Shown: positions 2,984-55,918, numbered from the stretch's first letter. The stretch is 64,000 nt of DNA from an uncultured Candidatus Saccharibacteria bacterium (GCA_964428845.1 CAYRZH010000002.1:6924-70923), one strand, 5' to 3'. The notes: generated from the sequence alone by a model not told the origin. Numbers and translations are program-made.

Positions 2984-3021
2984 AAAAAAACGGCCAGAAT
3001 CCTCCTTAGAGAATCCTGGCC
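2984..3021 (-). terminator. intrinsic terminator (serves the minus-strand gene 3041-4051)
   Basis: GGCCAG..CTGGCC hairpin followed by a T-run on the minus strand. Confidence 0.5.
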
Positions 3022-3040
3022 GCACTGCTTCGATGATGAA

Positions 3041-4051
3041 CTACATGACTGATACGTTCTCGTCCGGATGGAATGCCTTCCGCAGTTCAGGCCTCTGATT
3101 CCACATCCGCACCGCCGTTCTCACAAGGTCGCGAATCTGGGGAAGCGTTCCCTGCAGACCGAGGACGTACATATGATGTGAGTCTGGCCGAAGCTGGAAC
3201 GTCACGTAGCTGACGGCGTCTTGGAGCATAACGCGGTCGTAGCCGCACATTTCAGCCGCCAGCACCTTCACCGACCCGAACTGGCCGGACGCTCCGCGAA
3301 ACTTTGCGCCGTCCAGGACTGCCTTCATTCCATTGAAGTAGACTTCATCCTGGAAGGTGATGCACAGCTCGTAGAGCATTCCGCCGATAGTGACGATGTC
3401 GTGATCCTTGTCAATCGCGCCGCGCGTCATGATCGAGGTGTCGAGCCAGAGGTTCTCATAGACATTGGCGCCTGTCTGGAGCTCCTCGAATCCCTGATCT
3501 GGTTCGCCGTAGATCGTAACGTGGACTGCACGATCACGGAATTCGCCGAATCTGGAATCAGGCGCGTCGTCGTTCTTCGTATCTGTGTACCACGCTTCGA
3601 CGGTGACCCAGACGATGTACTTCGTTTCCTTCCACACCGGATCGGAGTGCAGATAACCCGTGCCGTGCGCATTGAGGCGTTTGGACCTCCAGAGCACCCA
3701 CCAGGCATAAATCTCATCGAGACTTCGTTTGCGTTCCGCAGAGTTGCGCGGAAAGTTGAGCTGGTTGAGGATCTCGCCATCGGCGTCGATAGCGAATGCG
3801 TACTCGCCTCGGCGCATGACCTGATCCTTACGGTTGCCTTTGAGATGGAAGATACACGAGGAATCGCCGAGACCAACGTTGTCCGCTCTGCGATACATGA
3901 GATCTCCGTCCGCTTTTTCCACTCTGATGGTCAGATCATCAACCTTGACCCCGCGCTCGCCGTCGAAAGGTTCCATGCGGGACGCGATTATTCTTTCCAC
4001 GAAGGGATATTGCTTAAGCAACTCGCGGTTCTTCGAGGCCGTCGGCTTCAT
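3041..4051 (-). CDS. hypothetical protein (336 aa), GC-rich accessory gene
   Basis: ATG at 4051 preceded by an AGGAGGG RBS; about 58% GC against a ~40% background; no family recognised. Confidence 0.6.
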   Translation of the reverse strand: MKPTASKNRELLKQYPFVERIIASRMEPFDGERGVKVDDLTIRVEKADGDLMYRRADNVGLGDSSCIFHLKGNRKDQVMRRGEYAFAIDADGEILNQLNFPRNSAERKRSLDEIYAWWVLWRSKRLNAHGTGYLHSDPVWKETKYIVWVTVEAWYTDTKNDDAPDSRFGEFRDRAVHVTIYGEPDQGFEELQTGANVYENLWLDTSIMTRGAIDKDHDIVTIGGMLYELCITFQDEVYFNGMKAVLDGAKFRGASGQFGSVKVLAAEMCGYDRVMLQDAVSYVTFQLRPDSHHMYVLGLQGTLPQIRDLVRTAVRMWNQRPELRKAFHPDENVSVM

Positions 4052-4124
4052 TTCGTGCCCTCCTACGTTCCGTAGTTTTCAAATTGTTGGCGTTCCGCCA
4101 ACAGTCGGCCTACATCGGACGACA

Positions 4125-4157
4125 ATATAAAATATAATGATTTCTTCAATCCGTCAA
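4125..4157 (-). promoter_or_regulatory. sigma70-like promoter for gene 3041-4051
   Basis: Minus-sense TTGACG - ~17 nt - TATTTT, about 70 nt upstream of the ATG. Confidence 0.4.
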
Positions 4158-4196
4158 TTCTTTTTGAAGGTTCTTAACCGTACGAAAAAATGGAGA

Positions 4197-4245
4197 GGGA
4201 ATTGGGTTATTTGAAGTTTATTTAGTATAAAAGAAAACCGCCCCC
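4197..4245 (-). repeat. conserved ~50-bp inter-cassette repeat unit, copy A
   Basis: GGGAATTGGGTTATTTGAAGTTTATTTAGTATAAAAGAAAACCGCCCC is about 85% identical to copy B at 4827-4876; its 3' end forms one arm of a terminator hairpin. Confidence 0.6.
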
Positions 4246-4268
4246 AACGGCTTTCCGTTGGGGGCGGG
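4231..4268 (-). terminator. intrinsic terminator for gene 4276-4665
   Basis: CCGCCCCCAACGG ctttc CCGTTGGGGGCGG hairpin followed by TTTTCTTTT on the minus strand. Confidence 0.7.
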
Positions 4269-4275
4269 ACTGATT

Positions 4276-4665
4276 TCAGCTTGCGAGCTGGACCTCGGAC
4301 GCACTGATGATCGGCGCCCAGGCTTCTTCAAGGGTTGGGAAGGCCTTGAGCGCCACTTCCACAAACCCATGAAGATTTCGATACGCGAACTCGACATCGT
4401 TGCTGTAGAGAGGAACCTGCCTCTCGCTCGAATAGACGAGGGTTGCGAACCCTGTCAGCTTCCAGCATTCGACGGCTCTCGAATGCTTCATTACCCTGAA
4501 GGTCCATCTGCACGACTCAGATTCGACCGTGGCTTCGATTCCATCCTTAGAAGAAAAGGGGACCATGCCGAAGGTCATTCTGATGACCTGATCGATCTCC
4601 GACCGCATCCTGTCGATGTTCCGTGAGCCCCGAATCAGACGAGCCGCGGTCTCCGTGCTGTTCAT
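4276..4665 (-). CDS. hypothetical protein (129 aa), GC-rich
   Basis: ATG at 4665 preceded by AAAAGGAG; no family recognised. Confidence 0.55.
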   Translation of the reverse strand: MNSTETAARLIRGSRNIDRMRSEIDQVIRMTFGMVPFSSKDGIEATVESESCRWTFRVMKHSRAVECWKLTGFATLVYSSERQVPLYSNDVEFAYRNLHGFVEVALKAFPTLEEAWAPIISASEVQLAS

Positions 4666-4736
4666 TGCAAACTCCTTTTCTCAAAGGGCCCTCTCGGGCG
4701 GGTGATGAGCATCTCTGCTCGGGAACTAACTTTCCA

Positions 4737-4765
4737 TATATTACACTAAATAACAAAAAAAGTCA
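4737..4765 (-). promoter_or_regulatory. sigma70-like promoter for gene 4276-4665
   Basis: Minus-sense TTGACT - 17 nt - TAATAT. Confidence 0.5.
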
Positions 4766-4826
4766 AGTAATCGTAATGGTTCAATACCTTGGAAAATTTT
4801 AGAACTCTAGATGGGGGAAACGGCTA

Positions 4827-4876
4827 GGGGATTAAGTTATTTGAAATTTAGTTTTGTATAAAAGAAAGACCGCCCC
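4827..4876 (-). repeat. conserved ~50-bp inter-cassette repeat unit, copy B
   Basis: GGGGATTAAGTTATTTGAAATTTAGTTTTGTATAAAAGAAAGACCGCCCC. Confidence 0.6.
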
Positions 4877-4894
4877 GTGCACCAGGGCGGTCTT
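4868..4894 (-). terminator. intrinsic terminator for gene 4908-5315
   Basis: GACCGCCC cgtgcacca GGGCGGTC hairpin followed by a T-run on the minus strand. Confidence 0.7.
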
Positions 4895-4907
4895 GGTTCT
4901 TGTGGAG

Positions 4908-5315
4908 TTAGCTTTTGAGAGAAAGCCACTCCTTCTCCCCGAGTTGTCGTACACGCCCTTCGATGAGCGTCGCAATCATGCTGATCTCTTCCGCGGTTAC
5001 CCACGGTAGACCATCACTTTTGCGTCGACAAACCTGGGATATGTAGAAGCATCGTCGCACGAGCTCCTCCACAAGATCCAGGCGGTCTGATTGTTCGCAA
5101 GAGCCACGCGCCGTGACACTTGCCGCACTTGCGAGGAATCTCTCGACGTAGCCGAGATATTCATCGGGTGCCACGAGGCAGTGGAGAGGGTCAACCTCAT
5201 TCCATGCCTCGTAAACGATCGGACCGATTGGCCCCCATTTCTCCAGAAGTGCAGCCGAGATTCGACTCTCGTACGCACAGCTGAAAGAGGGAAGACCGGG
5301 GTTGTGGCTCGTCAT
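4908..5315 (-). CDS. hypothetical protein (135 aa), GC-rich
   Basis: The internal ATG at 5315 (MTSHNPGL...) is preceded by an AAAGGA RBS; the longer ORF-track start lacks an RBS. Confidence 0.5.
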   Translation of the reverse strand: MTSHNPGLPSFSCAYESRISAALLEKWGPIGPIVYEAWNEVDPLHCLVAPDEYLGYVERFLASAASVTARGSCEQSDRLDLVEELVRRCFYISQVCRRKSDGLPWVTAEEISMIATLIEGRVRQLGEKEWLSLKS

Positions 5316-5510
5316 GGTTTTTCCTTTGTGGTTCGGGGTTTCCGACACAATTAAGAAAAAACCTAACCTAACACTGCATGGCCCCACTTGGGTTCGCCAT
5401 GATGTGCCACAACCTTTCTGGTGTTTACCCTAACATATCGATAGTTTTTTGTCAAATAGTGCTCTGACTCGTGGGCAAGTTCAGAATTCTTAATTGGGTA
5501 AATATAGAAA

Positions 5511-5555
5511 GGGAATTGAGCCGATTAGGTTTTACATAAAACACAAAACCCGCCC
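5511..5555 (-). repeat. diverged third copy of the inter-cassette repeat unit, copy C
   Basis: GGGAATTGAGCCGATTAGGTTTTACATAAAACACAAAACCCGCCC shares both ends and the TTT..ATAAAA core with copies A and B. Confidence 0.4.
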
Positions 5556-5590
5556 TTCCAACGAGTCTTGTGACTAATTGAGAGTGCGGG

Positions 5591-5836
5591 TCATTCTTGC
5601 GCCATTTTCAGAAGCACCCCTTTCGCCCCGTTGAGCACCCGTATCTGGGTTTCGACACACGGTTCTAACGATTGAGGGACTCCCCCTGACAAAAGTCGCT
5701 GCAGGGTATTGACGTTCTGGCAGAAAATACAAAGGCCTTGAAGGAACATGGCAACAGTCTCAGCCGTTGGCATTTCACCCCTCAGGATCTTCCTTTGTAA
5801 CCCAGCGGCGATAACCAGCATGTCTTCGTCATTCAA
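5591..5836 (-). CDS. hypothetical small protein (~77-81 aa); start uncertain (TTG at 5836 or ATG at 5821)
   Basis: GC-rich ORF co-oriented with the three cassettes; an AGGAGG lies about 30 nt upstream. Confidence 0.35.
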   Translation of the reverse strand: MNDEDMLVIAAGLQRKILRGEMPTAETVAMFLQGLCIFCQNVNTLQRLLSGGVPQSLEPCVETQIRVLNGAKGVLLKMAQE

Positions 5837-6062
5837 ATGTGCAGTTAAAGGTGTGATTTGAACACCTCCTTTCTGTGTGAAATACTATCACAATAAAGAA
5901 TATGTGTCAACTACGCTAATGGCTCCGCACATTTCATCTTTACCGAACTGTATAAAATCTATCCACTAGTTAAATCGAGTATGGAAAGAATGAGAAGGTT
6001 GAGTTTCTTTGATATATCAATGAAATTTTCACAAAGTGCACATGTTCGTTTTTAGCAAAGGA

Positions 6063-6919: not shown

Positions 6920-7264
6920 TTAGAACCCATTTAGCCAGTATCTTTTGATTATCGGCAAAGATAGAGTAGAGAGAATGTAACCTAAAACTGGGACAAAGGC
7001 TTTTAGCCAAAAGTTGTTTTCATGAATCATTACGAGCCAAATAGCGGCGACAATGTATGTGATTATCGAAATCGTGAATCTTCGAACCCAACTTACTTCC
7101 CAAGCCTTGTCATTTTCTACACGATTGTTACGCTCTCTAATTGTCTTAAGCTCAGTTTCTATTTCTTGTGTATTCATGAAAGTAATAATAGCAAACATAA
7201 AAAGAAAACCACCGGATGAGTACCCGGCGGTCTTTTGAGTGGCGTTTTTAGGTAACCACTTCAC
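6920..7264 (-). CDS. hypothetical small membrane protein
   Basis: Three predicted TM segments; no family recognised. Confidence 0.4.
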   Translation of the reverse strand: MKWLPKNATQKTAGYSSGGFLFMFAIITFMNTQEIETELKTIRERNNRVENDKAWEVSWVRRFTISIITYIVAAIWLVMIHENNFWLKAFVPVLGYILSTLSLPIIKRYWLNGF

Positions 7265-7832
7265 TACCTCTTATTTCTTCAGCTCCTTTTCTGTGAAGTG
7301 CGGCGGCGGCGATGAGGCCACAGAGGATCACACAGACACCTGGGTAGAATCGCTCTTCGATCAACCAACCCTTGCCTCCCATTAGTGAGAGGAAGTTGGC
7401 GACGACGTACCCAATGTATATGTACCCGGTCTGCTTGTCGGGCTTCCGCCATGATTCCACGATCTGCGGTACCCCTGCGATGAAAACCGCAAGAGTGCTC
7501 GCAACGATCGCTGTTCTCGATCCGCTCATTTTCCAAACCACCAAACAAATGATGACCAGTGCGAGTATGAGCCACTCGAACCAGGTCCATTTGAATAGTT
7601 TTTTGTAAAGAAGCGAAGCAATCACGAACGACCCGCCAATCACATAGAAGACGAGCAAGAGAAAGTTTCCTCTCTCAATGATCGTGCTCACCATTGCTAT
7701 GGCGTCCAAGAAGACCCAAAGCATCCAAGCTGCGACGCTTTGCTTTACTTCACCTCTCATGATGCCTCGGATAAGCGGGACGTATAGCAGGAAGGCAAGC
7801 AGACCGCCCGCCCAGGCCAAAGTGCTCTCCAT
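7248..7832 (-). CDS. hypothetical polytopic membrane protein (194 aa), GC-enriched
   Basis: About 6 hydrophobic helices; roughly 52% GC. Confidence 0.5.
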   Translation of the reverse strand: MESTLAWAGGLLAFLLYVPLIRGIMRGEVKQSVAAWMLWVFLDAIAMVSTIIERGNFLLLVFYVIGGSFVIASLLYKKLFKWTWFEWLILALVIICLVVWKMSGSRTAIVASTLAVFIAGVPQIVESWRKPDKQTGYIYIGYVVANFLSLMGGKGWLIEERFYPGVCVILCGLIAAAALHRKGAEEIRGSEVVT

Positions 7833-7924
7833 TGGGCGATCTCCTTTATTTGAACTGTTTTGGGAAGGTGCTAAAAAACTCTAGCTATATAGTAGCATTA
7901 TTTTTTAAACGAGTCAAGTTTCAG

Positions 7925-8242
7925 CTCCGCGGGTAGGATTCGAACCTACGACCAATCGCTTACATTTGCTCCAAGCTTTCGCTCGGTATGGACTATATCA
8001 TCATCCTTCACCTGGTGGGTGGTTTGGATGTGGGGCGCTTCGTTCTGCTCTTGCAGAACTACTCTCTTGCGAGATAGTCTCTGAACCTTTCCTTTGATAA
8101 TTAATCTGGGGACTTGGCTGCTGATTGCCCACGGCTTTACGTTTGGGTTTCCAGCAATTCACCTCATTTTTCAGCCCGTATTCCTACGGGAAGCTGCGTA
8201 ATTTCGACACAGGCGATCGCTCTACCACTGAGCTACCGCGGA
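7925..8242 (-). tRNA. tRNA-Asn(GUU) interrupted by a group I intron (exons 8242-8209 and 7962-7925)
   Basis: The 5' exon reads TCCGCGG TA GCTC AGTGGTA GAGC G ATCGC CUGU. The 3' exon reads UAA GCGAT TGGTC GTAGG TTCGAAT CCTAC CCGCGGA G. This gives a perfect 7-bp acceptor stem, a CUGUUAA anticodon loop and G73 discriminator (fits Asn); CCA is not encoded. Confidence 0.75.
7963..8208 (-). ncRNA. group I self-splicing intron (246 nt) in the tRNA-Asn anticodon loop
   Basis: The conserved core elements occur in the right order: P AATTGCTGGAAA (8159-8148), Q AATCAGCAGCC (8126-8116), R GTTCAGAGACTATC (8086-8073) and S GATGATATAGTCC (8002-7990). The 5' splice site follows a U, the intron ends in G, and a GCAG guide sequence can pair with exon CUGU (U.G). 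Confidence 0.75.
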
Positions 8243-18808: not shown

Positions 18809-18836
18809 AAACACCCGCTTCCATTTTGGAAGCGGG
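18809..18836 (-). terminator. intrinsic terminator for gene 18877-19476
   Basis: ACCCGCTTCC atttt GGAAGCGGGT hairpin followed by TTTTTTT on the minus strand. Confidence 0.65.
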
Positions 18837-18876
18837 TAACGTACTGGGTCGTGTGAACGTGGACATGGGCATAGTG

Positions 18877-19476
18877 CTACTTTCTACTGCGCCTCTTCTT
18901 CTTCGACTTCGTCGAGGTGTCCTTCCAGCCGAGCCGGCCGGTGACTTTGTAGAGATTGAGCGGGGCGCCCTTCTTGCCGTCGCGGGGTTGCTTGCCGACA
19001 ACGACGATGCCATCGAGCAGACGCGACAAGATGAGAGAAACATGGTTCGGCATAAACGCCACGGACATTCTCGACAGCTTATCGGTCACATCGTGGCGAG
19101 TGAAACGCTCCAGACCACGCATACTCTCGACTGCCTGGAGGACATGGGGCTTCAGGTCGGTCATGGACAGCTCGTTGCCGTTGCGTGGGGTGGCTCTGCG
19201 CCGGCGCCTCTTGGTCTTTGCCGGGAGCGAAGTCCTCGTTTTGGTCAGGACTGCCGGCGAAGAGTTTACCGAGTTCGCGTGCCCGGAAGACTTGCTGGAT
19301 GGGTTTGTTCCATCGAGCCGCGCGCTCACAAGCTCCAGGCCGAACGACGCACAGAGGCTATCGAAGATCCTCTGTAGCTCGGCCATGTGCCTCTGATACT
19401 TGTCCTCGTATTCCCGACATCGCCTCTCGAATTCAGCCACCAACGCCGCCTGCAGAGCCCGTCTCTTCATAGGCAT
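18877..19476 (-). CDS. hypothetical basic protein with C-terminal winged-helix-like region (199 aa), GC-rich
   Basis: ATG at 19476 preceded by AAGGAG; Arg/Lys-rich; the C-terminal segment LSRMSVAFMPNHVSLILSRLLDGIVVVG..KGAPLNLYKVTG resembles a wHTH; about 60% GC. Confidence 0.55.
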   Translation of the reverse strand: MPMKRRALQAALVAEFERRCREYEDKYQRHMAELQRIFDSLCASFGLELVSARLDGTNPSSKSSGHANSVNSSPAVLTKTRTSLPAKTKRRRRRATPRNGNELSMTDLKPHVLQAVESMRGLERFTRHDVTDKLSRMSVAFMPNHVSLILSRLLDGIVVVGKQPRDGKKGAPLNLYKVTGRLGWKDTSTKSKKKRRSRK

Positions 19477-19642
19477 ATACTTACTCCTTGCCGTTTTACG
19501 GCTTTATGCGGGCTTGGAACCCTGTTTACCTGTTACTAGATCTCCAAGGTCTAGCGACATCTGTCTACCAAAACCACCATTCTGGGGTGGATATTACACA
19601 CCCTGTACATTTTGTCAATACATGGTAATATCTGTCCCAGTG

Positions 19643-19675
19643 GGCCTGTAATGGTTACAGGCCATTTAATGGTTC
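19643..19675. promoter_or_regulatory. perfect palindrome GGCCTGTAA-TGG-TTACAGGCC plus a TAATGGTT direct repeat in the divergent control region
   Basis: Seen directly, between divergent genes 18877-19476(-) and 19713-20018(+). Confidence 0.45.
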
Positions 19676-19712
19676 TTTTACAAAGGAATTTAGAATCCAA
19701 GAAAGGGAAATA

Positions 19713-20018
19713 GTGCTCAAGCCACAAGTCAGAAGGGATTCTGACAACGGTTTCATAAAGGCCGTTGTTGGGAAAGTTCGTGATAATGGCAAAGGTGTAT
19801 TTGCAGTCGCCTACCTACAGAATGGTGAAACCCACCCAAATATTTCTGCTGGAGAAAGCATCACGTTTTCTCTAGACGATTGGGGGGGGAGGCTCCAACC
19901 GCGCGTTGGACAAGTTGTTCTGTTGGGGGATGTTCAGTGTTTTGCCAAGGGATGGCGTGCATTGTCTGCACGCCCCGTCACACTCGAGCCACAAGCCACA
20001 GCCACAAGAAAGGGGTAG
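19713..20018 (+). CDS. hypothetical protein (101 aa), first gene of the GHKL operon
   Basis: GTG at 19713 with an AAGGGA RBS; the C-terminus EPQATATRKG is encoded by the 30-bp direct repeat. Confidence 0.5.
   Translation: MLKPQVRRDSDNGFIKAVVGKVRDNGKGVFAVAYLQNGETHPNISAGESITFSLDDWGGRLQPRVGQVVLLGDVQCFAKGWRALSARPVTLEPQATATRKG
19984..20013 (+). repeat. 30-bp direct repeat DR1 (TCGAGCCACAAGCCACAGCCACAAGAAAGG)
   Basis: Identical copy at 20808-20837; each copy encodes a C-terminal EPQATATRK and supplies the RBS of the next gene. Confidence 0.8.
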
Positions 20019-20020
20019 TT

Positions 20021-20848
20021 ATGCAGAGGAAAGTCAACAGGGGTTCAACGGCAGAATGTCTCAAGGTTTTTTCGGACGAGAATCGCTTCAATGTTACCAA
20101 CATAGCGCGGTGTCGCGTTCGCAATCAAGTCTGTACGCTTCTTAGGATATCAGCCTCGACTGGTCATGCTTGGTTTGCCAGGCAGATTCTGCCGACTGGT
20201 GTAAACATGTTCAAGTTGCAACTTCTTCTCGAAGTTTGTGGCTTTGAAATCAAAGAGCGGCAGAATCTAACTCCTCTGTCTCGCGCTCTTGCTGATCAGG
20301 TGGCCCTGAATGTTCTTTCGGTTGGAAGAGCAGCCTCATTCATTGGGTCAGATGAAGACAAGATTGTCGCGCTCGCGTCTGGTCGTGAAGGAGCCAGTCC
20401 AGATCGGATCTCGAGAACGACCGAATTAGTAGAGATGGAAAAGCCGGCGGCGGAATCAAGAATGGAATTTTTCCGTCAGTCCCTGAAAAAGTTTGGCGTA
20501 GTTTTTGCACAGGAAGCACCTTCGCAGGAGACAGTTCGTGTCGACGCAGATATGCAAGTGCCTACGTCGACTTTGTCACCATCGGCACCACCCTTGGCGA
20601 GCGACACTGATCGGACGCATGCTGTTCATGCGCTCGCGCATCTAGTTTTGGGGATCAAGCACCTTGCCGCAAGAGTGGCCTCCGACGAGTTTACTCCAGC
20701 GGAAAGAGATATGCTTCGTCGTATGACAGGTAATGGCCTTTCCAATGCGATCTTCGATCTTTCGAACATCTTTCACCGCTTGTGCGGTGAGAGAGCTCGG
20801 AGTCGAATCGAGCCACAAGCCACAGCCACAAGAAAGGAGCCGTTGTGA
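20021..20848 (+). CDS. hypothetical protein (275 aa), second gene of the GHKL operon
   Basis: The ATG at 20021 is 2 nt after the gene-1 stop, with an AAAGGGG RBS; the C-terminus EPQATATRKEPL comes from DR2. Confidence 0.55.
   Translation: MQRKVNRGSTAECLKVFSDENRFNVTNIARCRVRNQVCTLLRISASTGHAWFARQILPTGVNMFKLQLLLEVCGFEIKERQNLTPLSRALADQVALNVLSVGRAASFIGSDEDKIVALASGREGASPDRISRTTELVEMEKPAAESRMEFFRQSLKKFGVVFAQEAPSQETVRVDADMQVPTSTLSPSAPPLASDTDRTHAVHALAHLVLGIKHLAARVASDEFTPAERDMLRRMTGNGLSNAIFDLSNIFHRLCGERARSRIEPQATATRKEPL
20808..20837 (+). repeat. 30-bp direct repeat DR2
   Basis: Identical to DR1. Confidence 0.8.
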
Positions 20849-22566
20849 GGAATTTCACACCGCCGTCTACTGCTGGCAGACACACCGCCATTAAGTTCAA
20901 TCAGGGCCAGGCCCTCTTGCATCTTGCTGGCATGTACCCGACTTTGCATGAGGTTATCCTCGAGCTTGTCCAAAACGCCCTAGACAAGGACGTGCGGGCA
21001 ACTCGGATCTGGATCGTTGTCAATCAAAAGACTCGGCACATCGCGGTGCGCGACAATGGTGCCGGAACAACGCTTGATAGATTCAACGAGGCACTTGCGT
21101 CAGTCGCGGAACCAGGCCGCAAGGGCGAGGGGAGTCTGGGACAGTTTGGTATCGGTCTCATTTCTCCTCTTGGTAAGTGTAAAGAGTTTGTTTTTCTCTC
21201 CTGCCCAGCACCTCATATGTACGGGTTCCAGGAGTGGACGTTTAGAACCGATCACATCACTGCGCAAAGACAGGATCTGATGATCCCTCTACGAGCTCGA
21301 GATGATCTCACGCTTCAGGATAGACCTCCTCCAGGAAAAACCCGGCTCCAGTGGCGATCGGAAATGAGCCTTACTGGTATCACGACTGATGGTGTCGTTG
21401 GTCAGATTTCCATGGACGCTCTTATCGGGGGTATTCAAGACCGCTATGCCACCGTTATGCGGCGTAACAAGACTATCATTTCGGTGGAGATCACCGACAA
21501 GGATGGTAGTGTCGAACGGCGGCCCAATGTGACGGCTTCAGACTTTCGAGGTCGTGCTCTCGAAGAGTGGACGTATGTAGAGCCCTCTGCTGGCAGGACC
21601 ACATTTCGTTTGTTTGTTGCTCCCAAGTCCAAAACGGGACGAAGCGGGCGGGTGGTTGTGGGAATCATGGGGAATGATTTCAGAATTCCACTCCACTATG
21701 TCGTCCGATCTGCGACCGCTCTTCTTGGCGAAGAAGTGGTTACGGCACTGTCGTCTGGTCTTTTCGAGGGAGAAATCATCTCTGAGTGTGCCAAACTGCA
21801 CCCAAGTCGCAGAAGTCTTGTCAAAGACGATGCTTTCATTGGCTTCTGTTTGGCTATCGAGGAGTGGTATAACCAAGTTGGGTCAAAGTGTGTTGATGAG
21901 ATTCGTCAGTCCCGACAGGAACAACGGTTCCAGGATCTGGGACTGCGATCGATGAAGGTGATCGAGGGTCTGCTCAATAATCCCGCGCTTTCATCGCTCC
22001 GGGCGGTTATCGGTTCTTTTGGCCGAGGCACGGTCAGTAGTGCTCACCATGACCCCACGAAGAAGGTCGTAGGTGAGCAGGAAAAGCCAGCCTTGTCGGT
22101 TCAGGGAGTCTTTGCCACGCCGAGTGGAGAAGACCCGGAAGATCCTGACGACGGCGGAGGATCTTCTGCCGAGAAGCCGCCTCGGCCGCCTCTCACTGTC
22201 ACAGGTCCTAGAGGTCCAAGACGGAAGATCGTGAGAAGCTCGAGCTTCGGCTTGCAGTTTGCTCATGAGCCAGTTGAGGGTTCTCCCGACTTGTGGAATC
22301 TTGACACAAGAGAGGGTGTACTGACCTTCAACATCCGGCATCCACTCTGGGTTGCCTGTGATGTGAGGGACGTTCCACTCATGAAACTGCAGGAGTGGGT
22401 GGCGATACAGGCGTTGACGCTTGAGATGATGCCTCCGGCCCTGCGCGTTCCACAACGGCTTATTTTGGATGAGATCACCGTTTCGATGGTTTCCTGGATT
22501 CTTGGTGCTGACAAAGCGAGGGGTTCTATCCCGAACCCGAAGGGTAAGAGGAGACCCTCGCAGTAA
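20845..22566 (+). CDS. GHKL/Bergerat-fold ATPase (HATPase_c_3; MORC/Hsp90/MutL-like N-domain) with a ~440-aa uncharacterised C-terminal region
   Basis: N-box ELVQNALDKD, G1 box VRDNGAGT and G2 box GSLGQFGIGLIS are present in canonical spacing. A GTG start overlaps the gene-2 stop (GTGA) and is preceded by AAAGGAG. Confidence 0.65.
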   Translation: MRNFTPPSTAGRHTAIKFNQGQALLHLAGMYPTLHEVILELVQNALDKDVRATRIWIVVNQKTRHIAVRDNGAGTTLDRFNEALASVAEPGRKGEGSLGQFGIGLISPLGKCKEFVFLSCPAPHMYGFQEWTFRTDHITAQRQDLMIPLRARDDLTLQDRPPPGKTRLQWRSEMSLTGITTDGVVGQISMDALIGGIQDRYATVMRRNKTIISVEITDKDGSVERRPNVTASDFRGRALEEWTYVEPSAGRTTFRLFVAPKSKTGRSGRVVVGIMGNDFRIPLHYVVRSATALLGEEVVTALSSGLFEGEIISECAKLHPSRRSLVKDDAFIGFCLAIEEWYNQVGSKCVDEIRQSRQEQRFQDLGLRSMKVIEGLLNNPALSSLRAVIGSFGRGTVSSAHHDPTKKVVGEQEKPALSVQGVFATPSGEDPEDPDDGGGSSAEKPPRPPLTVTGPRGPRRKIVRSSSFGLQFAHEPVEGSPDLWNLDTREGVLTFNIRHPLWVACDVRDVPLMKLQEWVAIQALTLEMMPPALRVPQRLILDEITVSMVSWILGADKARGSIPNPKGKRRPSQ

Positions 22567-22597
22567 GGCAGGTGGCTCACCAGAGACATCTGACCAC

Positions 22598-22628
22598 CCC
22601 GGTACTTGTGTGCCGGGGTTTTTTTATA
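22598..22628 (+). terminator. intrinsic terminator of the GHKL operon
   Basis: CCCCGGTAC ttgtgtg CCGGGG followed by TTTTTTTA. Confidence 0.7.
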
Positions 22629-29870: not shown

Positions 29871-29887
29871 CGCTGTCTGACTCGATC

Positions 29888-30301: not shown

Positions 30302-30453
30302 TTCTTCACTCCCTTTCGTTATGGTGGTGTGATGATTGTTTGCAACAAACACAATTCTGCCAACATACTACATATGGCTAAATCATCAGTCAAGATAGCC
30401 CAATAGTTCAATTGCTTAGGCTATTTGAGTAATACACTGTTTCCCAAAATGAA

Positions 30454-30480
30454 ACCCCCACAGTCTCCCGTGGGGGTTTT
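30454..30480. terminator. intrinsic terminator
   Basis: ACCCCCAC agtctccc GTGGGGGT hairpin followed by TTTGAAT; it shares GGGGTTTTGAAT with the MITE-like repeat end. Confidence 0.5.
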
Positions 30481-30505
30481 GAATGTGAACGTAGAACTCG
30501 TGAAC

Positions 30506-31066
30506 TCAGCAGGCCGCGAGCGATCCGCTGCGGGGGGGCTGGGGACCAACCCCGACCGCTTCCGTACCGACGGGTGGTCTGTTGTTGGCAACGATGGATC
30601 CCGGTAGACCCTCAACATACGCCAGTGATTCGGTAGTAGTCCGAGTGACACCGGCGAAACCTCCCTGGAGCACCACTTTCGTGGTGACGATGTATCGGTA
30701 CTTCCCAGGTGTCAGATTCAGGAAAACCTCGTCCTCCCGACCATGAATGGAGATATCCCGTAGCGGCCGCACGACGCGCAACCGGCCGTTTTGTACGACG
30801 AGCATGTACTCAACATCGTCGTGACGAAAGCCCCCCCTCACCTCGAGGATGTCGCCTGGCTCGAACACCTTACTGATGAACATGGGGCAGCCGATCCTGG
30901 CCTTGTAGGAATCTCGATCTCGCACAGTGGCGGCGATAAAGGAACACACAATGATGAGCACGATGAGCACCAGGACAATTGCGGCTGCCTCCCCAAAGGT
31001 GAACCAGGATCCTCCCGAGCTCATCTGGTCCGACGTCTGCGCCAACACGAGACTGAAATTGAACAC
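30506..31066 (-). CDS. hypothetical membrane-anchored protein (186 aa), GC-rich paralog of 29888-30301
   Basis: GTG at 31066 with an AAAGGAG RBS; TM helix; the motif LTPGKYRYIV parallels LEPGTYFIY of the neighbouring gene; about 58% GC. Confidence 0.5.
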   Translation of the reverse strand: MFNFSLVLAQTSDQMSSGGSWFTFGEAAAIVLVLIVLIIVCSFIAATVRDRDSYKARIGCPMFISKVFEPGDILEVRGGFRHDDVEYMLVVQNGRLRVVRPLRDISIHGREDEVFLNLTPGKYRYIVTTKVVLQGGFAGVTRTTTESLAYVEGLPGSIVANNRPPVGTEAVGVGPQPPRSGSLAAC

Positions 31067-31198
31067 GTTCTTCTCCTTTTTCCAAAGTGCTTGGTTGCGG
31101 TGCCCGACATAGGCAACCGATTATTTCCAAGGTTGATTATAGCACGCTTGATAGCATCTTGTCAATGAGTAAAACAAAATCCCCAGCAAACTTGCCAC

Positions 31199-36438: not shown

Positions 36439-36510
36439 GGCCCTATCGTCTAACGGTTAGGACGGGAGCTTCTCAAGCTCCAAATCCGGGTTCGATTCCC
36501 GGTAGGGTCA
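36439..36510 (+). tRNA. tRNA-Glu(CUC)
   Basis: GGCCCTA TC GTCT AACGGTTA GGAC G GGAGC TTCTCAA GCTCC AAAT CCGGG TTCGATT CCCGG TAGGGTC A; a Glu-like D-arm. Confidence 0.75.
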
Positions 36511-36650
36511 GAGATTTGAGCGGGCCGAGAAGCTCTGGCCCTAAGCGGGCCGACTTCTCGGCCCGCGTCCGGGAATCGAACGCCGGAGCGATGTTTCGCC
36601 AGTAGGCGAAACCGCGAGGCGGTGCCCAGCCCGAGGCTAGGGCGGCGAGC
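36511..36650. other. GC-rich hairpin-dense segment following the tRNA (includes an inverted T-arm-like fragment)
   Basis: Perfect hairpins GCGGGCCGA cttc TCGGCCCGC (36546-36567) and GTTTCGCC agta GGCGAAAC (36592-36615); GTCCGGGAATCGAACGCC is an inverted partial copy of the tRNA T-arm. Confidence 0.4.
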
Positions 36651-36681
36651 CGAGAGGCGCGGGAGATTCCCGGTAGGGTAA
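36651..36681 (+). repeat. direct repeat DR-a containing a copy of the tRNA-Glu 3' end (att-like)
   Basis: CGAGAGGCGCGGGAGATTCCCGGTAGGGTAA; 14 of its bases (ATTCCCGGTAGGGT) match the tRNA 3' end. Confidence 0.6.
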
Positions 36682-36760
36682 TAGATGCTAAATATTAATT
36701 TGATCATTTGTGTTATATTCTCATAAGAAACACCTTAGCCATTACAGGAGGGAGTAATAA

Positions 36761-37060
36761 ATGAATATTATCAGAGCATGCTGTTTACTTTACCTTTGTA
36801 TTTGTATACCTTCAGACCTAAACCCCATGCTATGGATTGCAGGTAAATTCCTGGAGAGAAATCCCTTGCTACTCTCTATACATCTCTTGCTGTACCTGGC
36901 TTCAGGGATTTTCTTTTGTATAACAATTGGCTATGAAAAAAGAACTGCCAGAAAAAGAATAAGGCTAGGACTCTGTCCTGCGTGTGGTTATGATTGGCGA
37001 GTCACACCTCGAAGATGTCCTGAATGCGGAAGAATTCCGAGGCGCTACAGAATTGTCTGA
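36761..37060 (+). CDS. hypothetical small membrane protein with a C-terminal CxxC..CxxC zinc ribbon (99 aa)
   Basis: ATG preceded by a GGAGGGAG RBS; two TM helices; C-terminal CPACGYDWRVTPRRCPECG; located between DR-a and DR-b. Confidence 0.5.
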   Translation: MNIIRACCLLYLCICIPSDLNPMLWIAGKFLERNPLLLSIHLLLYLASGIFFCITIGYEKRTARKRIRLGLCPACGYDWRVTPRRCPECGRIPRRYRIV

Positions 37061-37073
37061 GCGTCTTTTTAGT

Positions 37074-37104
37074 CGAGAGGCGCGGGAGATTCCCGGTAGG
37101 GTCA
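37074..37104 (+). repeat. direct repeat DR-b (second copy, 30/31 identical to DR-a)
   Basis: CGAGAGGCGCGGGAGATTCCCGGTAGGGTCA; 17 nt are identical to the tRNA-Glu 3' end including the discriminator. Confidence 0.6.
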
Positions 37105-37149
37105 TGCGAGCAAAAAATCACGGCCTTTTGCTCATATTAGATAAAACAA

Positions 37150-37190
37150 AACCCCGTCCAAACAAGCGCGGGGCTTGTCTGAAACGGGGT
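37150..37190 (-). terminator. intrinsic terminator for gene 37201-37779
   Basis: Minus-sense CCCCGTTTCAGACAAG ccccgcg CTTGTTTGGACGGGG followed by TTTTGTTTT. Confidence 0.6.
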
Positions 37191-37200
37191 GAATGAATGA

Positions 37201-37779
37201 TCAGATGCGGCGGAAGAAGCTCAAGAAGTTGGTGATTCTCCTCACCACACTACGCTGGCTCAATCTCCCACGGAGTTCCCTGATCGTTGCCAACGCTCCA
37301 CCCAACTGCTGTTGGGTTTGCATGAGCTCGTTTTCGAGTTGCTTACGAGATTTGCCGTTCTGGCGTCCCTCGTAGCTCTCCTCGGGACGGATCGCGCCGG
37401 TCTTCACCATGTGCAGAATCGCCCTGAGGTCTTCCATGTTGTCGGCGATGATCCTGAGCGAGTACACCGGCAATTCGCGCCTGGAGTTTCCGCGTTCTCC
37501 CGGCGTGAGCTCGCATACTGCACTCCCATGCCGATAGACGCCGGATTCTCTGGGGCCCATTCGTGGGATTTCCTCGTGGCACGAGATTCTTACCACCAGA
37601 TTCTTCAGCGCGTCGGGGATGTCGTTGTCTTCTCTCCATGAGATATAAGGGGTAGAATCTCTATCGTACACATACTCACCAAAGATAGTTGTCTGATCTG
37701 CTGTGCCGTTCCTGCCGGGCTGACTCTTGTACTCGGGGAGCTCACGAACCTCGCCGCTTAGGTACACGTTGATGGACAT
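37201..37779 (-). CDS. hypothetical protein (192 aa), GC-rich, C-terminal coiled-coil
   Basis: The internal ATG at 37779 has an AAAAGGAG RBS; about 58% GC; no family recognised. Confidence 0.5.
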   Translation of the reverse strand: MSINVYLSGEVRELPEYKSQPGRNGTADQTTIFGEYVYDRDSTPYISWREDNDIPDALKNLVVRISCHEEIPRMGPRESGVYRHGSAVCELTPGERGNSRRELPVYSLRIIADNMEDLRAILHMVKTGAIRPEESYEGRQNGKSRKQLENELMQTQQQLGGALATIRELRGRLSQRSVVRRITNFLSFFRRI

Positions 37780-38089
37780 GACTTTCTCCTTTTGTCGCTC
37801 TGGAATCGGTAGGGTTACTGGCCCAGTCCGTTCCACAAGTCGATCTGGTATCATGGTAGCATATACTATTACTTATGTCAATAGTTTTATATTTTCCAAA
37901 TAACCCCTGAAATTAGGCTTTCTAGCTTCTGTAAAATAAAATCTTTCCGAGGCTAGGGTGGCGAGTAGACAAATATCTATAGTAGGTAGAGAATTTGGGT
38001 AAAGGTCGGTCGTCACTACTCCTCTTTAAGATACCCGCAGTTGCGGGCCAAAAAACGACGGTAAAGATTAGGATTAACAACAAAAGATT

Positions 38090-39082: not shown

Positions 39083-39179
39083 AATTTCCTAAGGAATAAA
39101 TCTTGGCACGCCCTTGCAAAAAGCCGCTATATTGGCGTAGACTTCCTAGTGGATCGAATCAAACCAAGGGAGACTTACC

Positions 39180-39470
39180 ATGGAGCAAATGTCCCGAGAC
39201 GAATGGGAGTGGTTGCAGAAGCATGCCCGGATTGAGAATGGTGTTTACGTCTGCAAGCAGACGGGCGCTACGATAGCGACAGCCTTGGTTCCCAGATCAC
39301 TTTGGTTTAGGGGGTTTATGGGTGGTCCTGGCGAAGTGGAGTCGATACTGCATGTTTGTTGTCCATCCTGTCAGCCAGGCAAAGTCCCGCCTGAAAGAGG
39401 GACGAGCATCTACGAAGATGATATCGTCACAGTCGATGTGAATCCTGTTTTTCCAGCCGCTACTAGCTAG
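39180..39470 (+). CDS. hypothetical protein (96 aa), GC-rich
   Basis: AAGGGAGA RBS; Cys cluster VCK..HVCCPSCQ; about 57% GC. Confidence 0.45.
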   Translation: MEQMSRDEWEWLQKHARIENGVYVCKQTGATIATALVPRSLWFRGFMGGPGEVESILHVCCPSCQPGKVPPERGTSIYEDDIVTVDVNPVFPAATS

Positions 39471-39474
39471 CGGT

Positions 39475-39514
39475 CTTTTTTTGTACAAAAAAAGAGCAGG
39501 ATTGATTCCTGCCC
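39475..39514. terminator. bidirectional terminator between the convergent GC-rich genes
   Basis: CTTTTTTTGTACAAAAAAAG palindrome plus a GCAGGA ttgat TCCTGC hairpin. Confidence 0.5.
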
Positions 39515-39521
39515 TCGATGG

Positions 39522-39893
39522 TCAAACAACCCCCCGCATTCTCTCCTCGCGAGTAAGTCCAGGCCAGGGGAGGGACTTAGGTACTCGCCGCCTCTTGGGC
39601 GTGGCACTACTTGTCACCCTTGACGCACGAACTACGCCCATCTTCTCTCGCTCGCGCAAAAGCTCACGCTTCTGTGCTGCCCGTTTGCCGAAGAACTTGC
39701 CCATCTCGGCCATACAGGCGGCGATCGTTTCCGGCGACCGAATGTTATGGTCTCGGATGGTTCGGAAAAGAAGGGCCCTGAAATCTGGACGTTCCTTCTT
39801 TCCGCTCCGATGAAGGCTCATCTCGGCGGCATATCGCGTTGAAGCCTTGTCGATAAGCATCCGCACCACGGGGTCAACTGGTCTTTCTTCCAC
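39522..39893 (-). CDS. hypothetical basic protein (123 aa), GC-rich
   Basis: GTG start with an AAAGGAG RBS; Arg/Lys-rich C-terminus. Confidence 0.4.
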   Translation of the reverse strand: MEERPVDPVVRMLIDKASTRYAAEMSLHRSGKKERPDFRALLFRTIRDHNIRSPETIAACMAEMGKFFGKRAAQKRELLREREKMGVVRASRVTSSATPKRRRVPKSLPWPGLTREERMRGVV

Positions 39894-39974
39894 TCCGATA
39901 CTCCTTTATCCAGAGGTGAATGATTTTGTTCTTTCTATTGCAATTATACCACTTACCATGGCATTGTCAAACGA

Positions 39975-53990: not shown

Positions 53991-54018
53991 TTAGCCATTT
54001 TTATACCATAGAAACGAG

Positions 54019-54056
54019 CGTTTGTCATTGACAAACGTTTCTCAATATGCTACTAT
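54019..54056 (+). promoter_or_regulatory. promoter with an embedded palindromic operator CGTTTGTCA-T-TGACAAACG overlapping the -35 box
   Basis: The 19-bp near-perfect palindrome lies at 54019-54037; TTGACA (54028-33), a 17-nt spacer, then TACTAT (54051-56). Confidence 0.45.
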
Positions 54057-54063
54057 ATTGTGG

Positions 54064-54087
54064 ACTCAGTTGCGACTGAGTTTTTTG
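54064..54087 (+). terminator. hairpin plus U-run (trhO terminator or attenuator in the leader of the following gene)
   Basis: ACTCAG ttgcga CTGAGT followed by TTTTTT. Confidence 0.5.
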
Positions 54088-54138
54088 TTTTCTTGATCAT
54101 TATTTGATCGATTCCAATCTAAAATCTAATCCAAAACT

Positions 54139-54621
54139 ATGTTTAATTTAGCCGTTATTGGTCTATATGTTGTTTCTGGCCTTGCCGGTGATGCTATGCC
54201 TGCCATGCCGATTCCAACTGAAACATCTGTAAACCAGATTCAATTGGAAGCAAGGAAACAGGACGAGTCTAAAGAAATCACAACCGAAGCCTACGTTAAA
54301 AATTATTTCTCTGACACCCCGATTCTTGCCGAGGTTGCAAGATGTGAATCCCAGTTTAGACAGACTGACAAAAGTGGTCGTGTCATCCGTGGGAAAGCCA
54401 ATCGTTACGACGTTGGTGTCATGCAGATTAATGAGCTATACCACTTAGATAAGTCTAAGAATCTTGGCTACGACATCTATACTACAGAAGGTAACCTTGC
54501 GTATGCTCGCTACCTTTATGAAAAGGAAGGAGCACGCCCATGGATGGCCTCTTCAGGATGTTGGGCAAAGTTTAGAGAAATAGCTTTAAGCAACGGAAGT
54601 AATTTCGATCACACTCTCTAA
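54139..54621 (+). CDS. secreted lytic-transglycosylase/lysozyme-like domain protein
   Basis: Signal peptide/TM, then ARCESQF...GVMQINE, which resembles the catalytic ES..GLMQ motif of SLT-domain enzymes. Confidence 0.5.
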   Translation: MFNLAVIGLYVVSGLAGDAMPAMPIPTETSVNQIQLEARKQDESKEITTEAYVKNYFSDTPILAEVARCESQFRQTDKSGRVIRGKANRYDVGVMQINELYHLDKSKNLGYDIYTTEGNLAYARYLYEKEGARPWMASSGCWAKFREIALSNGSNFDHTL

Positions 54622-54648
54622 AAAACTAGAAGCAACTAATTAAACTTA

Positions 54649-54675
54649 AAACCCCGCATGTGCGGGGTTTTAAGT
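54649..54675. terminator. bidirectional intrinsic terminator
   Basis: AAAACCCCGCA tgt GCGGGGTTTT. Confidence 0.7.
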
Positions 54676-54844
54676 TTGTAAAGAGAGTGATTTTTATAAG
54701 TATTTTTTTATACAATCAAGCAAAATAAACAGATTGACACTGGTGGGGAAGGGGAGTAAATTCAAATGCGGAATCGAACATTGAATTTATAAAAAGTAAT
54801 CAAAAATACACACCGGGCTCTTGCCCAGAAAGGTTGAGTGAGAA

Positions 54845-55918
54845 ATGACGATTGTGGCGAGATCCCAGGCCGTTCTCCCGGTAAATGCCGAAAGTTCAAA
54901 CGACCTCCTCATCTCTGAATTTGCCCGCTATTTGGGTAAGACCCAGAAAAGAAGTCCTCATACAGTGATCAATTATTGCCGTGATGTGAAATCATTGGCA
55001 GGTGTTCTTTCGGACGAATTTGGAGAGGATGCCAGGCTCGCAACCATGTCAGCCGATGAGCTGAATGTATGCCTCGGTATTTTCAGGAACAATCTGGGTT
55101 ACAAAACAAATACCGTAGCAAGGAAGGTCTGCGCCCTAAAGGCTTTCTTCAAGTGGTTTGCGGAACATAGAGATGATGGGGTAGAAACGGGCCCTGTCGG
55201 ATTCCTCTCTGCACTTCGCGCGAAGAGACACAGAGAAACAATTTCCAGATTTCTGACTCTTTCCCATGTAACCAAACTGATGCGGTTTGGTGTAAATACT
55301 GGAATTGTATGCAGGGCGCGAGATACCTTGGCGATAAGACTCTTCCTGTTTACAGGAATTAGCTGTCGTGAACTTGTTGCTATCAATCTGGGTGATTTCA
55401 CGTTGGAGCGGGACGCAATTACTCGTAGGGTGGTGAAGATCGTCAGTGTCAGAGTCGGCCAAGCTCACACAATCTCACTCGACAGGCCCGAAATTCAAGA
55501 AGCATTGGTCGGCTACCTTAATCTCGTTTACCCCAAGTTTTTAGGGCAACCGAGTGTTGGCAGTAGTCATAGCTCTCTTCGCTCTCTTCCTCTTATGGTC
55601 AGTGGTAAGAATAGCAAAGTGAGGATAAAGGGCAGGTCTATAAGGAGGAATCTCCAAAAAATCGGGCGCAAACTCGGCATTAGCCAATCAGGCGTAGAGC
55701 TTGGTCCGACATCTCTTAGGCATCGGTTCGTCATCGATCGTCTGAAAGACCGCACTCCTCGAGCCGCAATATCTCAACTACTGGGCAAGCGACACGCTCA
55801 CTGTATATGGTGGCTAAATCGACTGGCTGCCGACATCGTCAATGCCGGTGCCCTGCAGGACAGTTATGGGGAAGGGGAAGTGGCCAAGCCACAAAATCAC
55901 CCTAAGCAAGTAAAGTGA
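54845..55918 (+). CDS. tyrosine recombinase/phage-integrase-family protein (catalytic Tyr not at the canonical position), GC-rich
   Basis: SAM-like core-binding N-domain (FARYLGKTQKRSPHTVINYCRDVKSL), box I TGISCRE, and box II SLRHRF..LLGKRHA. The HxxxxxxxxxY spacing is absent; about 53% GC. Confidence 0.55.
   Translation: MTIVARSQAVLPVNAESSNDLLISEFARYLGKTQKRSPHTVINYCRDVKSLAGVLSDEFGEDARLATMSADELNVCLGIFRNNLGYKTNTVARKVCALKAFFKWFAEHRDDGVETGPVGFLSALRAKRHRETISRFLTLSHVTKLMRFGVNTGIVCRARDTLAIRLFLFTGISCRELVAINLGDFTLERDAITRRVVKIVSVRVGQAHTISLDRPEIQEALVGYLNLVYPKFLGQPSVGSSHSSLRSLPLMVSGKNSKVRIKGRSIRRNLQKIGRKLGISQSGVELGPTSLRHRFVIDRLKDRTPRAAISQLLGKRHAHCIWWLNRLAADIVNAGALQDSYGEGEVAKPQNHPKQVK

Follow-up and report, generated by a model that had tools for sequence, protein, structure and literature searches.

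Phage genomes carry morons, single genes that lie between adjacent phage genes with their own promoter and terminator and with a GC content unlike that of their neighbors (PMC3594210). Morons spread by horizontal transfer through a mechanism that is unknown (Juhala/Hendrix; 'The moron comes of age', PMC3594210). Units of similar build were found in a cellular chromosome, in a 64,000-nt stretch of DNA (GCA_964428845.1 CAYRZH010000002.1:6924-70923; the whole stretch is called the window below), and we would file them as moron-like chromosomal cassettes, a variant of the phage morons. An earlier reading made from the sequence alone (the sequence-only reading) had described at least six GC-rich blocks of foreign DNA here, in a backbone of about 40% GC. 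Our analysis reveals a mosaic of minimal autonomous cassettes, and the families that were traced occur in other Patescibacteria. For the two families whose context was examined, one built around a GHKL ATPase and one encoding a 336-aa protein, GC content is above that of the host in most or all genomes, and one of the two prefers sites behind tRNA genes.

We consider it fairly probable that the blocks are self-contained expression cassettes, acquired horizontally from a GC-richer pool within the Patescibacteria and now decaying toward the composition of the host. Each unit would consist of a sigma-70-type promoter, a strong Shine-Dalgarno (SD) sequence, one open reading frame (ORF) or a short operon, and an intrinsic terminator, and would land singly or as part of a short array in intergenic gaps of an otherwise collinear chromosome. 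The source would be an accessory-gene pool common to Patescibacteria, GC-richer than its recipients mostly at synonymous sites, and after arrival the cassettes would drift toward the AT-rich composition of the host. Patescibacteria (candidate phyla radiation, CPR) have tiny, streamlined genomes whose gain of accessory genes is little known, and the window suggests that much of the flexible gene content of CPR may arrive as minimal, ready-to-express units.

GC-rich cassettes in a conserved backbone

The window as a whole has 44.4% GC, with 52.5% inside the six blocks and 42.9% outside them, so the backbone is nearer to 43% than to the 40% first given. Blocks 1 to 5 exceed in GC all windows of equal size outside the blocks (z 3.9 to 7.1), and for these five the contrast that had been described is real. 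The sixth (54.8-55.9 kb) is marginal, with z of 2.5 and a GC fraction of 0.490 against a maximum of 0.486 among equal-size outside windows, and it was left uncalled by a two-state segmentation. The high-GC tracts that the segmentation called were 2991-4723, 4868-5317, 18812-22618, 30455-31055, 36421-36678, 36963-37848 and 39191-39897, and a further tract at 15445-15739 (60% GC) is extra to the earlier list; islands had 54.9% GC by this procedure and the backbone 42.8%. The excess lies mainly in third codon positions, GC there (GC3) being 0.55-0.76 in island ORFs vs. about 0.37-0.47 in backbone genes, and the GC of second positions (GC2) of island ORFs is ordinary. Composition-normalized trinucleotide signatures of islands and backbone correlated with r of 0.78, compared with 0.97 (minimum 0.92) for backbone controls, and islands 1, 2 and 3 were closer to one another than to the backbone. 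Block GC, segmentation and normalized trinucleotides thus bear out the compositional contrast that the sequence-only reading had described.

The backbone consists of housekeeping genes, namely those for a DsbD/thioredoxin-type protein and a class II aminoacyl-tRNA synthetase (aaRS) together with rseP, proS, mraZ, murF, yqeY, rmuC, murG and ftsW; frr, mreB, mreC, greA and a penicillin-binding protein gene were recognized by eye and via a syntenic locus, L099 (labels of this form denote loci of other genomes). The nearest murF relatives, at 44-56% identity, all come from metagenome-assembled genomes labeled Patescibacteria, Parcubacteria or Paceibacterota, with some Saccharibacteria, and the chromosome is Paceibacteria-like (Patescibacteria/CPR). 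From frr to rmuC, L099 and the window are collinear except for the islands, and most backbone proteins of L099 show 50-78% identity to their window counterparts, with lower values for mreC and ftsL. The distance between rseP and proS is 17 nt in L099 vs. 3.8 kb in the window, where island 2 lies between them; the gap between the aaRS gene and mraZ is occupied by a GHKL cassette in L099 and by cassettes 3a and 3b in the window; and the contents of the murF-yqeY gap differ between these genomes. Genes of blocks 3, 4 and 5 are absent from other relatives too, and synteny continues on both sides of every island. The claim of foreign DNA is therefore broadly borne out, in that the blocks are foreign-type DNA inserted in a conserved backbone. 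For proS, the start of the longest ORF, a TTG, overlaps with the island 2 terminator (22596-22619), and translation probably begins instead at an ATG near 22696 (interval 22606-22696).

The islands adjoin tRNA-Glu and mraZ, in keeping with the claim that blocks abut tRNA genes or boundaries of the division and cell wall (dcw) cluster. That cluster is indeed in two parts, mraZ to murF at 31.6-36.4 kb and, on the minus strand, murG and ftsW at 62.3-64 kb. Relatives have murF, a variable gap and then yqeY-rmuC-rplU-recR-dnaB-cysS, and because they share this murF ... yqeY-rmuC order, the split is ancestral to the clade, the islands not being its cause.

A mosaic of this kind could be an artifact, made by mis-joining of foreign GC-rich fragments during metagenome assembly or by structured RNA genes; the source is evidently a metagenome-assembled genome, a 108-kb NCBI contig being the sole exact match in the databases, and some of the GC-rich tracts are RNA (tRNA-Glu, an intron-bearing tRNA-Asn and a candidate RNA at 15.4 kb). 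We regard such an origin as very improbable, and it is largely refuted already. Over 20 independent assemblies, made in different projects, show the same contrast between cassette and backbone, each island has synteny on both sides and boundaries at promoters and terminators, and coding is backed by the ratio of nonsynonymous to synonymous substitution rates (dN/dS), the GC3 pattern and confident folds.

Promoters and terminators were predicted by consensus scans and sequence reading for cassettes 1a-1d, 3a, 3b, 4, 5a and 5b, and are consensus matches only. As the sequence-only reading had claimed, such predicted elements bracket every island ORF, with a single ORF or short operon per unit (Table 1). 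Island 1 is composed of four tandem minus-strand units, each with a TTGAC-type -35 box, a -10 box, an SD sequence, an ORF and a GC-rich hairpin followed by a T-run, and a homologous segment of about 70 nt is common to all four junctions. Cassette 1c probably starts at Met25 (5315), and the alignment with its homologue P0118 (74%) begins at residue 25. Upstream of island 1 on the same strand are a GNAT gene, a small membrane-protein gene and then the 194-aa membrane-protein gene of cassette 0, whose product had no Pfam match above the cut-off and whose -35 box starts 6 nt past the 3' end of tRNA-Asn. The region from 2990 to 7917 is a same-strand accessory array headed by this tRNA; a search for repeats of the tRNA-Asn 3' end found none, although the array adjoins this tRNA. 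Island 3 consists of two tandem minus-strand units (3a and 3b) and island 5 (39100..39970) of two convergent cassettes.

Table 1. Features of the window, numbered from its first nucleotide; promoters and terminators are predicted.
Feature	Position	Strand	Promoter, terminator	Gene and other details
Block 1	3000-5900			51.6% GC
Block 2	18800-22600			53.2% GC
Block 3	30500-31100			57.9% GC
Block 4	36500-37800			51.8% GC
Block 5	39200-39900			54.4% GC
Block 6	54800-55900			49.0% GC
Cassette 1a	2990..4157	-	promoter 4129-4157; terminator 2990-3023	ORF 3041-4051, 336 aa, 56% GC, GC3 0.71
Cassette 1a 5' leader		-		hairpins ~4104-4123, 4087-4101, 4063-4075, then SD
Cassette 1b	4238..4766	-	promoter 4738-4766; terminator 4238-4267	ORF 4276-4665, 129 aa, 56% GC, GC3 0.70
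Cassette 1c	4866..5455	-	weak promoter ~5427-5455 (by eye); terminator 4866-4894	ORF 4908-5387 (159 or 135 aa)
Cassette 1d	5542..5910	-	promoter 5882-5910; terminator 5542-5572	ORF 5591-5836, 81 aa, 51% GC
Cassette 0	7248..7917	-	-35 box 7912-7917 (by reading)	ORF 7248-7832, 194-aa membrane protein, 51.5% GC, GC3 0.62
tRNA-Asn(GUU)	7924..8242	-		246-nt group I intron 7963-8208; Rfam RF00028, 82 bits; ARAGORN intron mode
Island 2	18812..22619	both	end terminators 18812-38 (-) and 22596-619 (+)	four genes
Island 2, 199-aa gene	18877-19476	-		GC3 0.76; divergent from three-gene operon
Island 2 operon, 101-aa gene	19713-20018			
Island 2 operon, ~275-aa gene	20021-20848			
Island 2 operon, ATPase gene	20845-22566			573-aa MORC-like GHKL ATPase
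Cassette 3b	29846..30393	-	promoter 30365-30393; terminator 29846-29871	ORF 29888-30352, membrane-anchored, 48% GC
Cassette 3a	30446..31165	-	promoter 31136-31165, perfect TTGACA-N18-TATAAT; terminator ~30446-30480	ORF 30506-31066, 186 aa, membrane-anchored, 59% GC, GC3 0.70
tRNA-Glu(CUC)	36439-36510	+		within repeat region 36439..37104
Cassette 4	37140..37965	-	promoter 37853-37881; terminator ~37140-37180	ORF 37201-37779, 192 aa, 55% GC, GC3 0.66
Cassette 5a		+	terminator 39456-39474	ORF 39180-39470, 96 aa
Cassette 5b		-	perfect promoter 39943-39970; terminator 39492-39516	ORF 39522-39893, 123 aa
Xer-like tyrosine recombinase gene	54845..55918	+		49% GC; marginal compositional outlier

Cassette families in other genomes

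Homologues were sought by full HMMER against 1.8 billion representatives; a word-indexed homology search with the concatenated island proteins found almost nothing. The 336-aa protein of cassette 1a had more than 60 homologues and the 192-aa protein of cassette 4 (counted from Met26 of a 217-aa ORF) more than 70, Magasanikbacteria among them. One or two homologues each were found for the 129-, 159- and 96-aa proteins, including P0136 (62%) and P0231 for the first and the Patescibacteria homologue P0224 for the last. The 186-aa protein of cassette 3a had only its self match among these representatives, both 3a and 3b are absent from the relatives compared, and no paralogy between them was detectable. 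Comparison of the island genes with Pfam, PADLOC, PHROGs and NCBIfam gave no curated family, an ATPase domain excepted. The earlier description of the genes as unrecognizable or of mobile type thus stands in its first part save for that domain, but not in its second, since no island holds a mobility gene. Nor should the genes be taken for orphans or junk, as they include conserved families with named Patescibacteria members and dN/dS of 0.1-0.2. Three such families of unrecognized function are defined here (the GHKL cassette, the 336-aa and the 192-aa families), along with a conserved leader RNA motif.

A metagenome scan recovered 37 loci for the 336-aa family. In most of about 25 loci, the gene had a higher GC content than the distal flanks (gene/flank values of 56/36, 56/40, 57/45, 54/37 and 55/36% GC), and its GC3 was 0.70-0.80 vs. 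0.25-0.45 for the host; three diverged members (L071, L072 and L077) were at host GC. The high-GC tract corresponded to exactly one ORF in L062, L063/64, L075, L078 and L087. Proteins that are 84-89% identical were flanked by unrelated genes, and DNA similarity between copies started near the -35 box and stopped 10-80 nt past the stop codon, at or near the terminator; what the copies share is thus the roughly 1.2-kb transcription unit itself. With dN/dS of 0.1-0.2 and synonymous divergence (dS) of 0.6-0.9 between copies, the family is under purifying selection. AlphaFold 2 models of the 336-aa and 192-aa proteins reached pLDDT (predicted local distance difference test) scores of 94.9 and 91.8, and neither predicted fold had a match among the solved structures searched. 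Scans of IMG/VR gave no relatives of either family. Loci elsewhere that hold the 336-aa family or the GHKL cassette contained none of the other island genes of the window, and the idea that the islands are fragments of one element was rejected on that ground.

The leader of the 336-aa gene (4052-4123, minus strand; same position in L059-L083) contains three conserved hairpins, two of which (CUAGCG-GAA-CGCUAG and CUACG-GAA-CGUAG) have the same CG-GAA-CG top and the last of which abuts the SD sequence. Across 17 loci, 90.6% of cells pair, vs. 82% in shuffles (0/500 shuffles reach 90.6%), ten pairs have both partners changed, and pairing in slid controls does not exceed 40%; the structure is supported by this covariation. 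No Rfam family matches the leader, and within the window the twin-hairpin form occurs before the 336-aa gene only. The leader may be a candidate binding site for a regulatory protein. Small ORFs lie beside the tRNA or cassette in three unrelated loci (L062 5285-5569, L061 7678-8007 and L055 9813-10172); that of L055 is a Pfam GIY-YIG protein, that of L062 is GIY-YIG-like by eye, and that of L061 is 37% identical to the L062 product. None of this type was seen beside the islands of the window.

The 573-aa GHKL ATPase of island 2 has an N-terminal Bergerat-fold domain, predicted from sequence (Pfam HATPase_c_3, 38.2 bits with a cut-off of 25), with MORC, sacsin and MutL-type matches; the nearest solved sequence is MORC3, a weak match (E 0.0028). 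Neither its C-terminal two thirds nor its three partner proteins matched any family. PADLOC returned only weak matches, confined to the ATPase domain (TmtA, 5e-5), which places the protein outside every catalogued defense system. There were 88 homologues, those with names being Paceibacterota or Sungbacteria, and the small cassette recurs in eight other genomes, each time at a different chromosomal site (SMC/RNase R; RNase R/rpsP; a gene beside leuS; PMM/purD; UDG/alaS; topA/parB; aaRS/mraZ). Partners of about 100 and 250 aa are detectably related to those of the window in several loci, with a similar arrangement in the rest, and a divergent ~200-aa gene often accompanies them. The ATPase of L099 is only 40% identical to that of the window. 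In all nine loci, the window included, the GC content of the cassette was above that of its flanks, by 1.7 to 12.8 points, and in a GC-rich Sungbacteria host the values were 66% vs. 58%. A 40-nt repeat (90% identity; 19984-20023 and 20808-20847) comprises the last codons of the preceding ORF and the SD sequence and lies directly before the start codons of the 275-aa and GHKL ORFs, such that one operon contains the same inter-cistronic junction twice. As speculation, cassettes with the MORC-like ATPase module and with small membrane-anchored or novel-fold proteins might have roles in conflict or host interaction.

Origin of the GC excess and mode of insertion

Singleton (lineage-specific) synonymous changes among five related gene copies numbered 49 from GC to AT vs. 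11 from AT to GC, with 11:0 and 18:0 in two lineages, and the implied equilibrium GC3 is about 0.41 vs. the observed 0.76. This bias would fit recent arrival from a GC-richer pool followed by decay in AT-rich hosts. The sequence-only reading had proposed a comparison with the donor signature of co-occurring organisms; the donor is not an arbitrary organism of that kind but looks like a cassette pool spread across the lineage, whose members are usually higher in GC than the host that carries them. Here the foreign DNA thus mostly exceeds its host in GC, the reverse of the usual rule.

The GC-richness could alternatively be kept in place by GC-biased gene conversion, or by selection on codon use or mRNA structure, and the contrast would then be no sign of recent transfer. 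Such maintenance would account for the GHKL cassette, which lies above host GC in nine of nine loci, the 58% GC host among them, and whose offset thus tracks the host; for a 336-aa clade that has GC3 of 0.70-0.80 despite dS of 0.6-0.9 and hosts of 36-45% GC; and for the fact that a GC-rich reservoir was not found. It is nonetheless improbable in our judgment. The 49:11 ratio on terminal branches indicates decay and not equilibrium, the diverged members L071, L072 and L077 are at host GC, and the different sites occupied in collinear genomes mean that transfer did occur. Inheritance from a GC-richer pool is favored over maintenance in place, with a possible contribution from the latter. If the offset were maintained and not inherited, it would bear on the debate over biased gene conversion vs. 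selection as the cause of bacterial GC content.

The 336-aa cassette is enriched downstream of tRNA genes. Of the 16 loci with enough upstream sequence, 5 have a same-strand tRNA whose end is no more than 600 nt upstream of the start codon (binomial P ~1e-5, assuming about one tRNA per 20 kb); these tRNAs are Ser-UGA, Ala-UGC, Ala-GGC, Val-CAC and Arg-GCG, and two further loci have a tRNA within 2.5 kb. The -35 box of the L060 cassette lies directly at the tRNA 3' end, with zero spacer. Extra copies of the tRNA 3' end occur in L061 and L059, as at tRNA-Glu of the window, where the last 15 nt of the tRNA are present in three exact copies (at 36494, 36665-36679 and 37088-37102; 0.08 expected). 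A shared arm stands in front of each of the two extra copies, and part of it recurs at 37947-37965 as an att-arm remnant. The repeats delimit a 171-nt unit (66% GC, 36511-36681), a 423-nt AT-rich unit that carries a zinc-ribbon ORF (36761-37060), and the GC-rich 192-aa gene; Rfam has no family for the unit beside tRNA-Glu. Short GC-rich tandem units also follow the tRNA in L061 (8186-8350) and L059 (1152-1400), with a tRNA 3'-end copy closing each; these are similar to the 171-nt unit and too small to encode anything. The GHKL loci show no link to tRNA genes.

We infer that single-gene cassettes would insert by trans-supplied site-specific recombination at tRNA 3' ends or at regenerated host junction sequence. 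The GHKL cassette would use a different route, because it is without linkage to tRNA genes. No island ORF has a recombinase domain, and the ends of the 336-aa cassette, set by comparing copies, have no terminal inverted repeats, target-site duplication or transposase. The sole recombinase found in the window is the Xer-like protein, encoded at least 15 kb from any array; it matches Pfam Phage_int_SAM_1 (4.8e-11) with a weak catalytic domain, and aligns over its full length to XerC, XerD and XerA models far below their cut-offs. In other loci, the 10 kb around the cassettes held no homologue of it.

The same tRNA copies, of the kind integrases leave, together with cassettes that encode no recombinase, arrays of unrelated GC-rich genes (island 1, L067, L079 and L061) and an anatomy that equals the definition of a moron (PMC3594210), would also be expected if the cassettes were strict morons, namely leftover cargo of prophages or larger tRNA-integrating elements that have lost their integrase and other genes by deletion. 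We think this unlikely. The atypical tract is exactly one gene in the five loci listed above (L062, L063/64, L075, L078 and L087), copies about 85% identical in DNA share nothing past the -35 box and the terminator and lie in unrelated contexts, and the L060 junction leaves no room for the remnant of an element. PHROGs gave only weak ATPase-domain matches for the islands, phage genes and viral-contig relatives were not found, and the 336-aa and 192-aa families had no relatives in IMG/VR.

Several points weigh against acquisition of self-contained cassettes from a GC-richer pool. Only some of the 336-aa loci, roughly a third to a half, adjoin a tRNA gene, and no GHKL locus does. A recombinase, transposase, terminal inverted repeats or target-site duplication was not found in or around the cassettes. 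The polarized-substitution test relies on parsimony at few sites, and parsimony is biased to common-to-rare changes. A GC-rich reservoir was not found: no host or element context had flanks as GC-rich as the cassettes, and IMG/VR gave no matches. A single donor pool of fixed GC explains poorly a GHKL cassette that is GC-richer even than a 58% GC host, and cassettes 1b, 1c, 1d, 3a, 3b and 5b, with few or no homologues, belong to the class by anatomy and composition alone.

A broader and more tentative proposal, which we regard as rather doubtful, is that Patescibacteria share a large pool of recombinase-less single-gene cassettes that are inserted into heterogeneous arrays by a trans-acting mechanism directed to tRNA 3' ends, with persistently GC-rich cargo and at least one family with a dedicated structured 5' leader. 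If true, this would be a gene-capture system apart from integrons, insertion sequences (IS) and integrase-bearing islands. The cassettes can be recognized from their high GC3, consensus promoter and terminator and frequent position behind a tRNA, and may serve as a marker of the CPR accessory genome.

Other local features and relation to known systems

Bacterial group I introns in tRNA genes are known mainly in tRNA-Leu, tRNA-fMet, tRNA-Arg and tRNA-Ile. The intron of tRNA-Asn(GUU) sits within the anticodon, between positions 35 and 36, and default ARAGORN overlooks the gene; a group I intron in tRNA-Asn of a Patescibacterium looks unusual. Between mreB and a holB-like gene (15411-15750, plus strand) lies a candidate structured non-coding RNA of about 300 nt and 60% GC, with a near-consensus promoter (TTGACC-N17-TAATAT), an intrinsic terminator and many hairpins with GCAA/GNRA-type loops. 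An ORF that overlaps it has flat GC across the three codon positions (GC1, GC2 and GC3), the fold z-score is -2.2, and no Rfam family matched at E up to 1; the 15445-15739 tract is probably non-coding RNA. Intergenic repeats resembling miniature inverted-repeat transposable elements (MITEs) occur at 9038-9243, 31236-31495 and 12550-12671. Two of them are bounded by the inverted repeat GGGKYTTGAATAGA, which has five close copies and eight matches with at most two mismatches vs. 2.1 expected; a related element of 122 nt has perfect 20-nt terminal inverted repeats, and one copy lies between cassette 3a and mraZ.

A literature search for GC-rich islands in Patescibacteria found nothing relevant, and the cassettes were compared with systems described elsewhere. 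They show none of the hallmarks of an IS element, MITE or transposon. Island 1 resembles an integron array in its unrelated single ORFs, its one orientation and its repeated junction sequence. However, every cassette of the window carries a promoter of its own and ends in an ordinary terminator, there is no adjacent intI gene, and the repeated junction appears to be host-specific rather than cassette-specific. No attC-type site was recognized by reading, without an attC model; the ORFs are followed by hairpins and T-runs that have the look of ordinary terminators.

Prokaryotic GHKL ATPase modules of the MORC/paraMORC type were reportedly described by Iyer, Abhiman and Aravind in 2008. Island 2 is like them in its N-terminal HATPase_c_3 domain (MORC, MutL and sacsin-type) and in being a small, mobile operon of variable context with a putative DNA-binding partner, and differs in that the C-terminal two thirds of the ATPase and the three partners match no family.

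Genomic islands inserted at tRNA genes by tyrosine integrases share with the window an array located 3' of a tRNA, direct repeats of the 3' end (here of tRNA-Glu) and atypical composition. The islands of the window differ from these in that no integrase lies inside or beside them, their units can be as small as one gene (0.5-1.2 kb), and close relatives of one cassette are found at many tRNAs (Ser, Ala, Val, Arg, Asn and Glu). The cassettes are also GC-richer than the host, whereas the usual direction is AT-richer. Compared with phage morons, the recipient here is a cellular chromosome, the neighbors are rseP/proS, aaRS/mraZ and murF/yqeY, and the units form same-strand arrays downstream of tRNA genes. 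What they have in common with the moron is a single added gene with its own predicted promoter and factor-independent terminator, a deviant GC content and horizontal spread.

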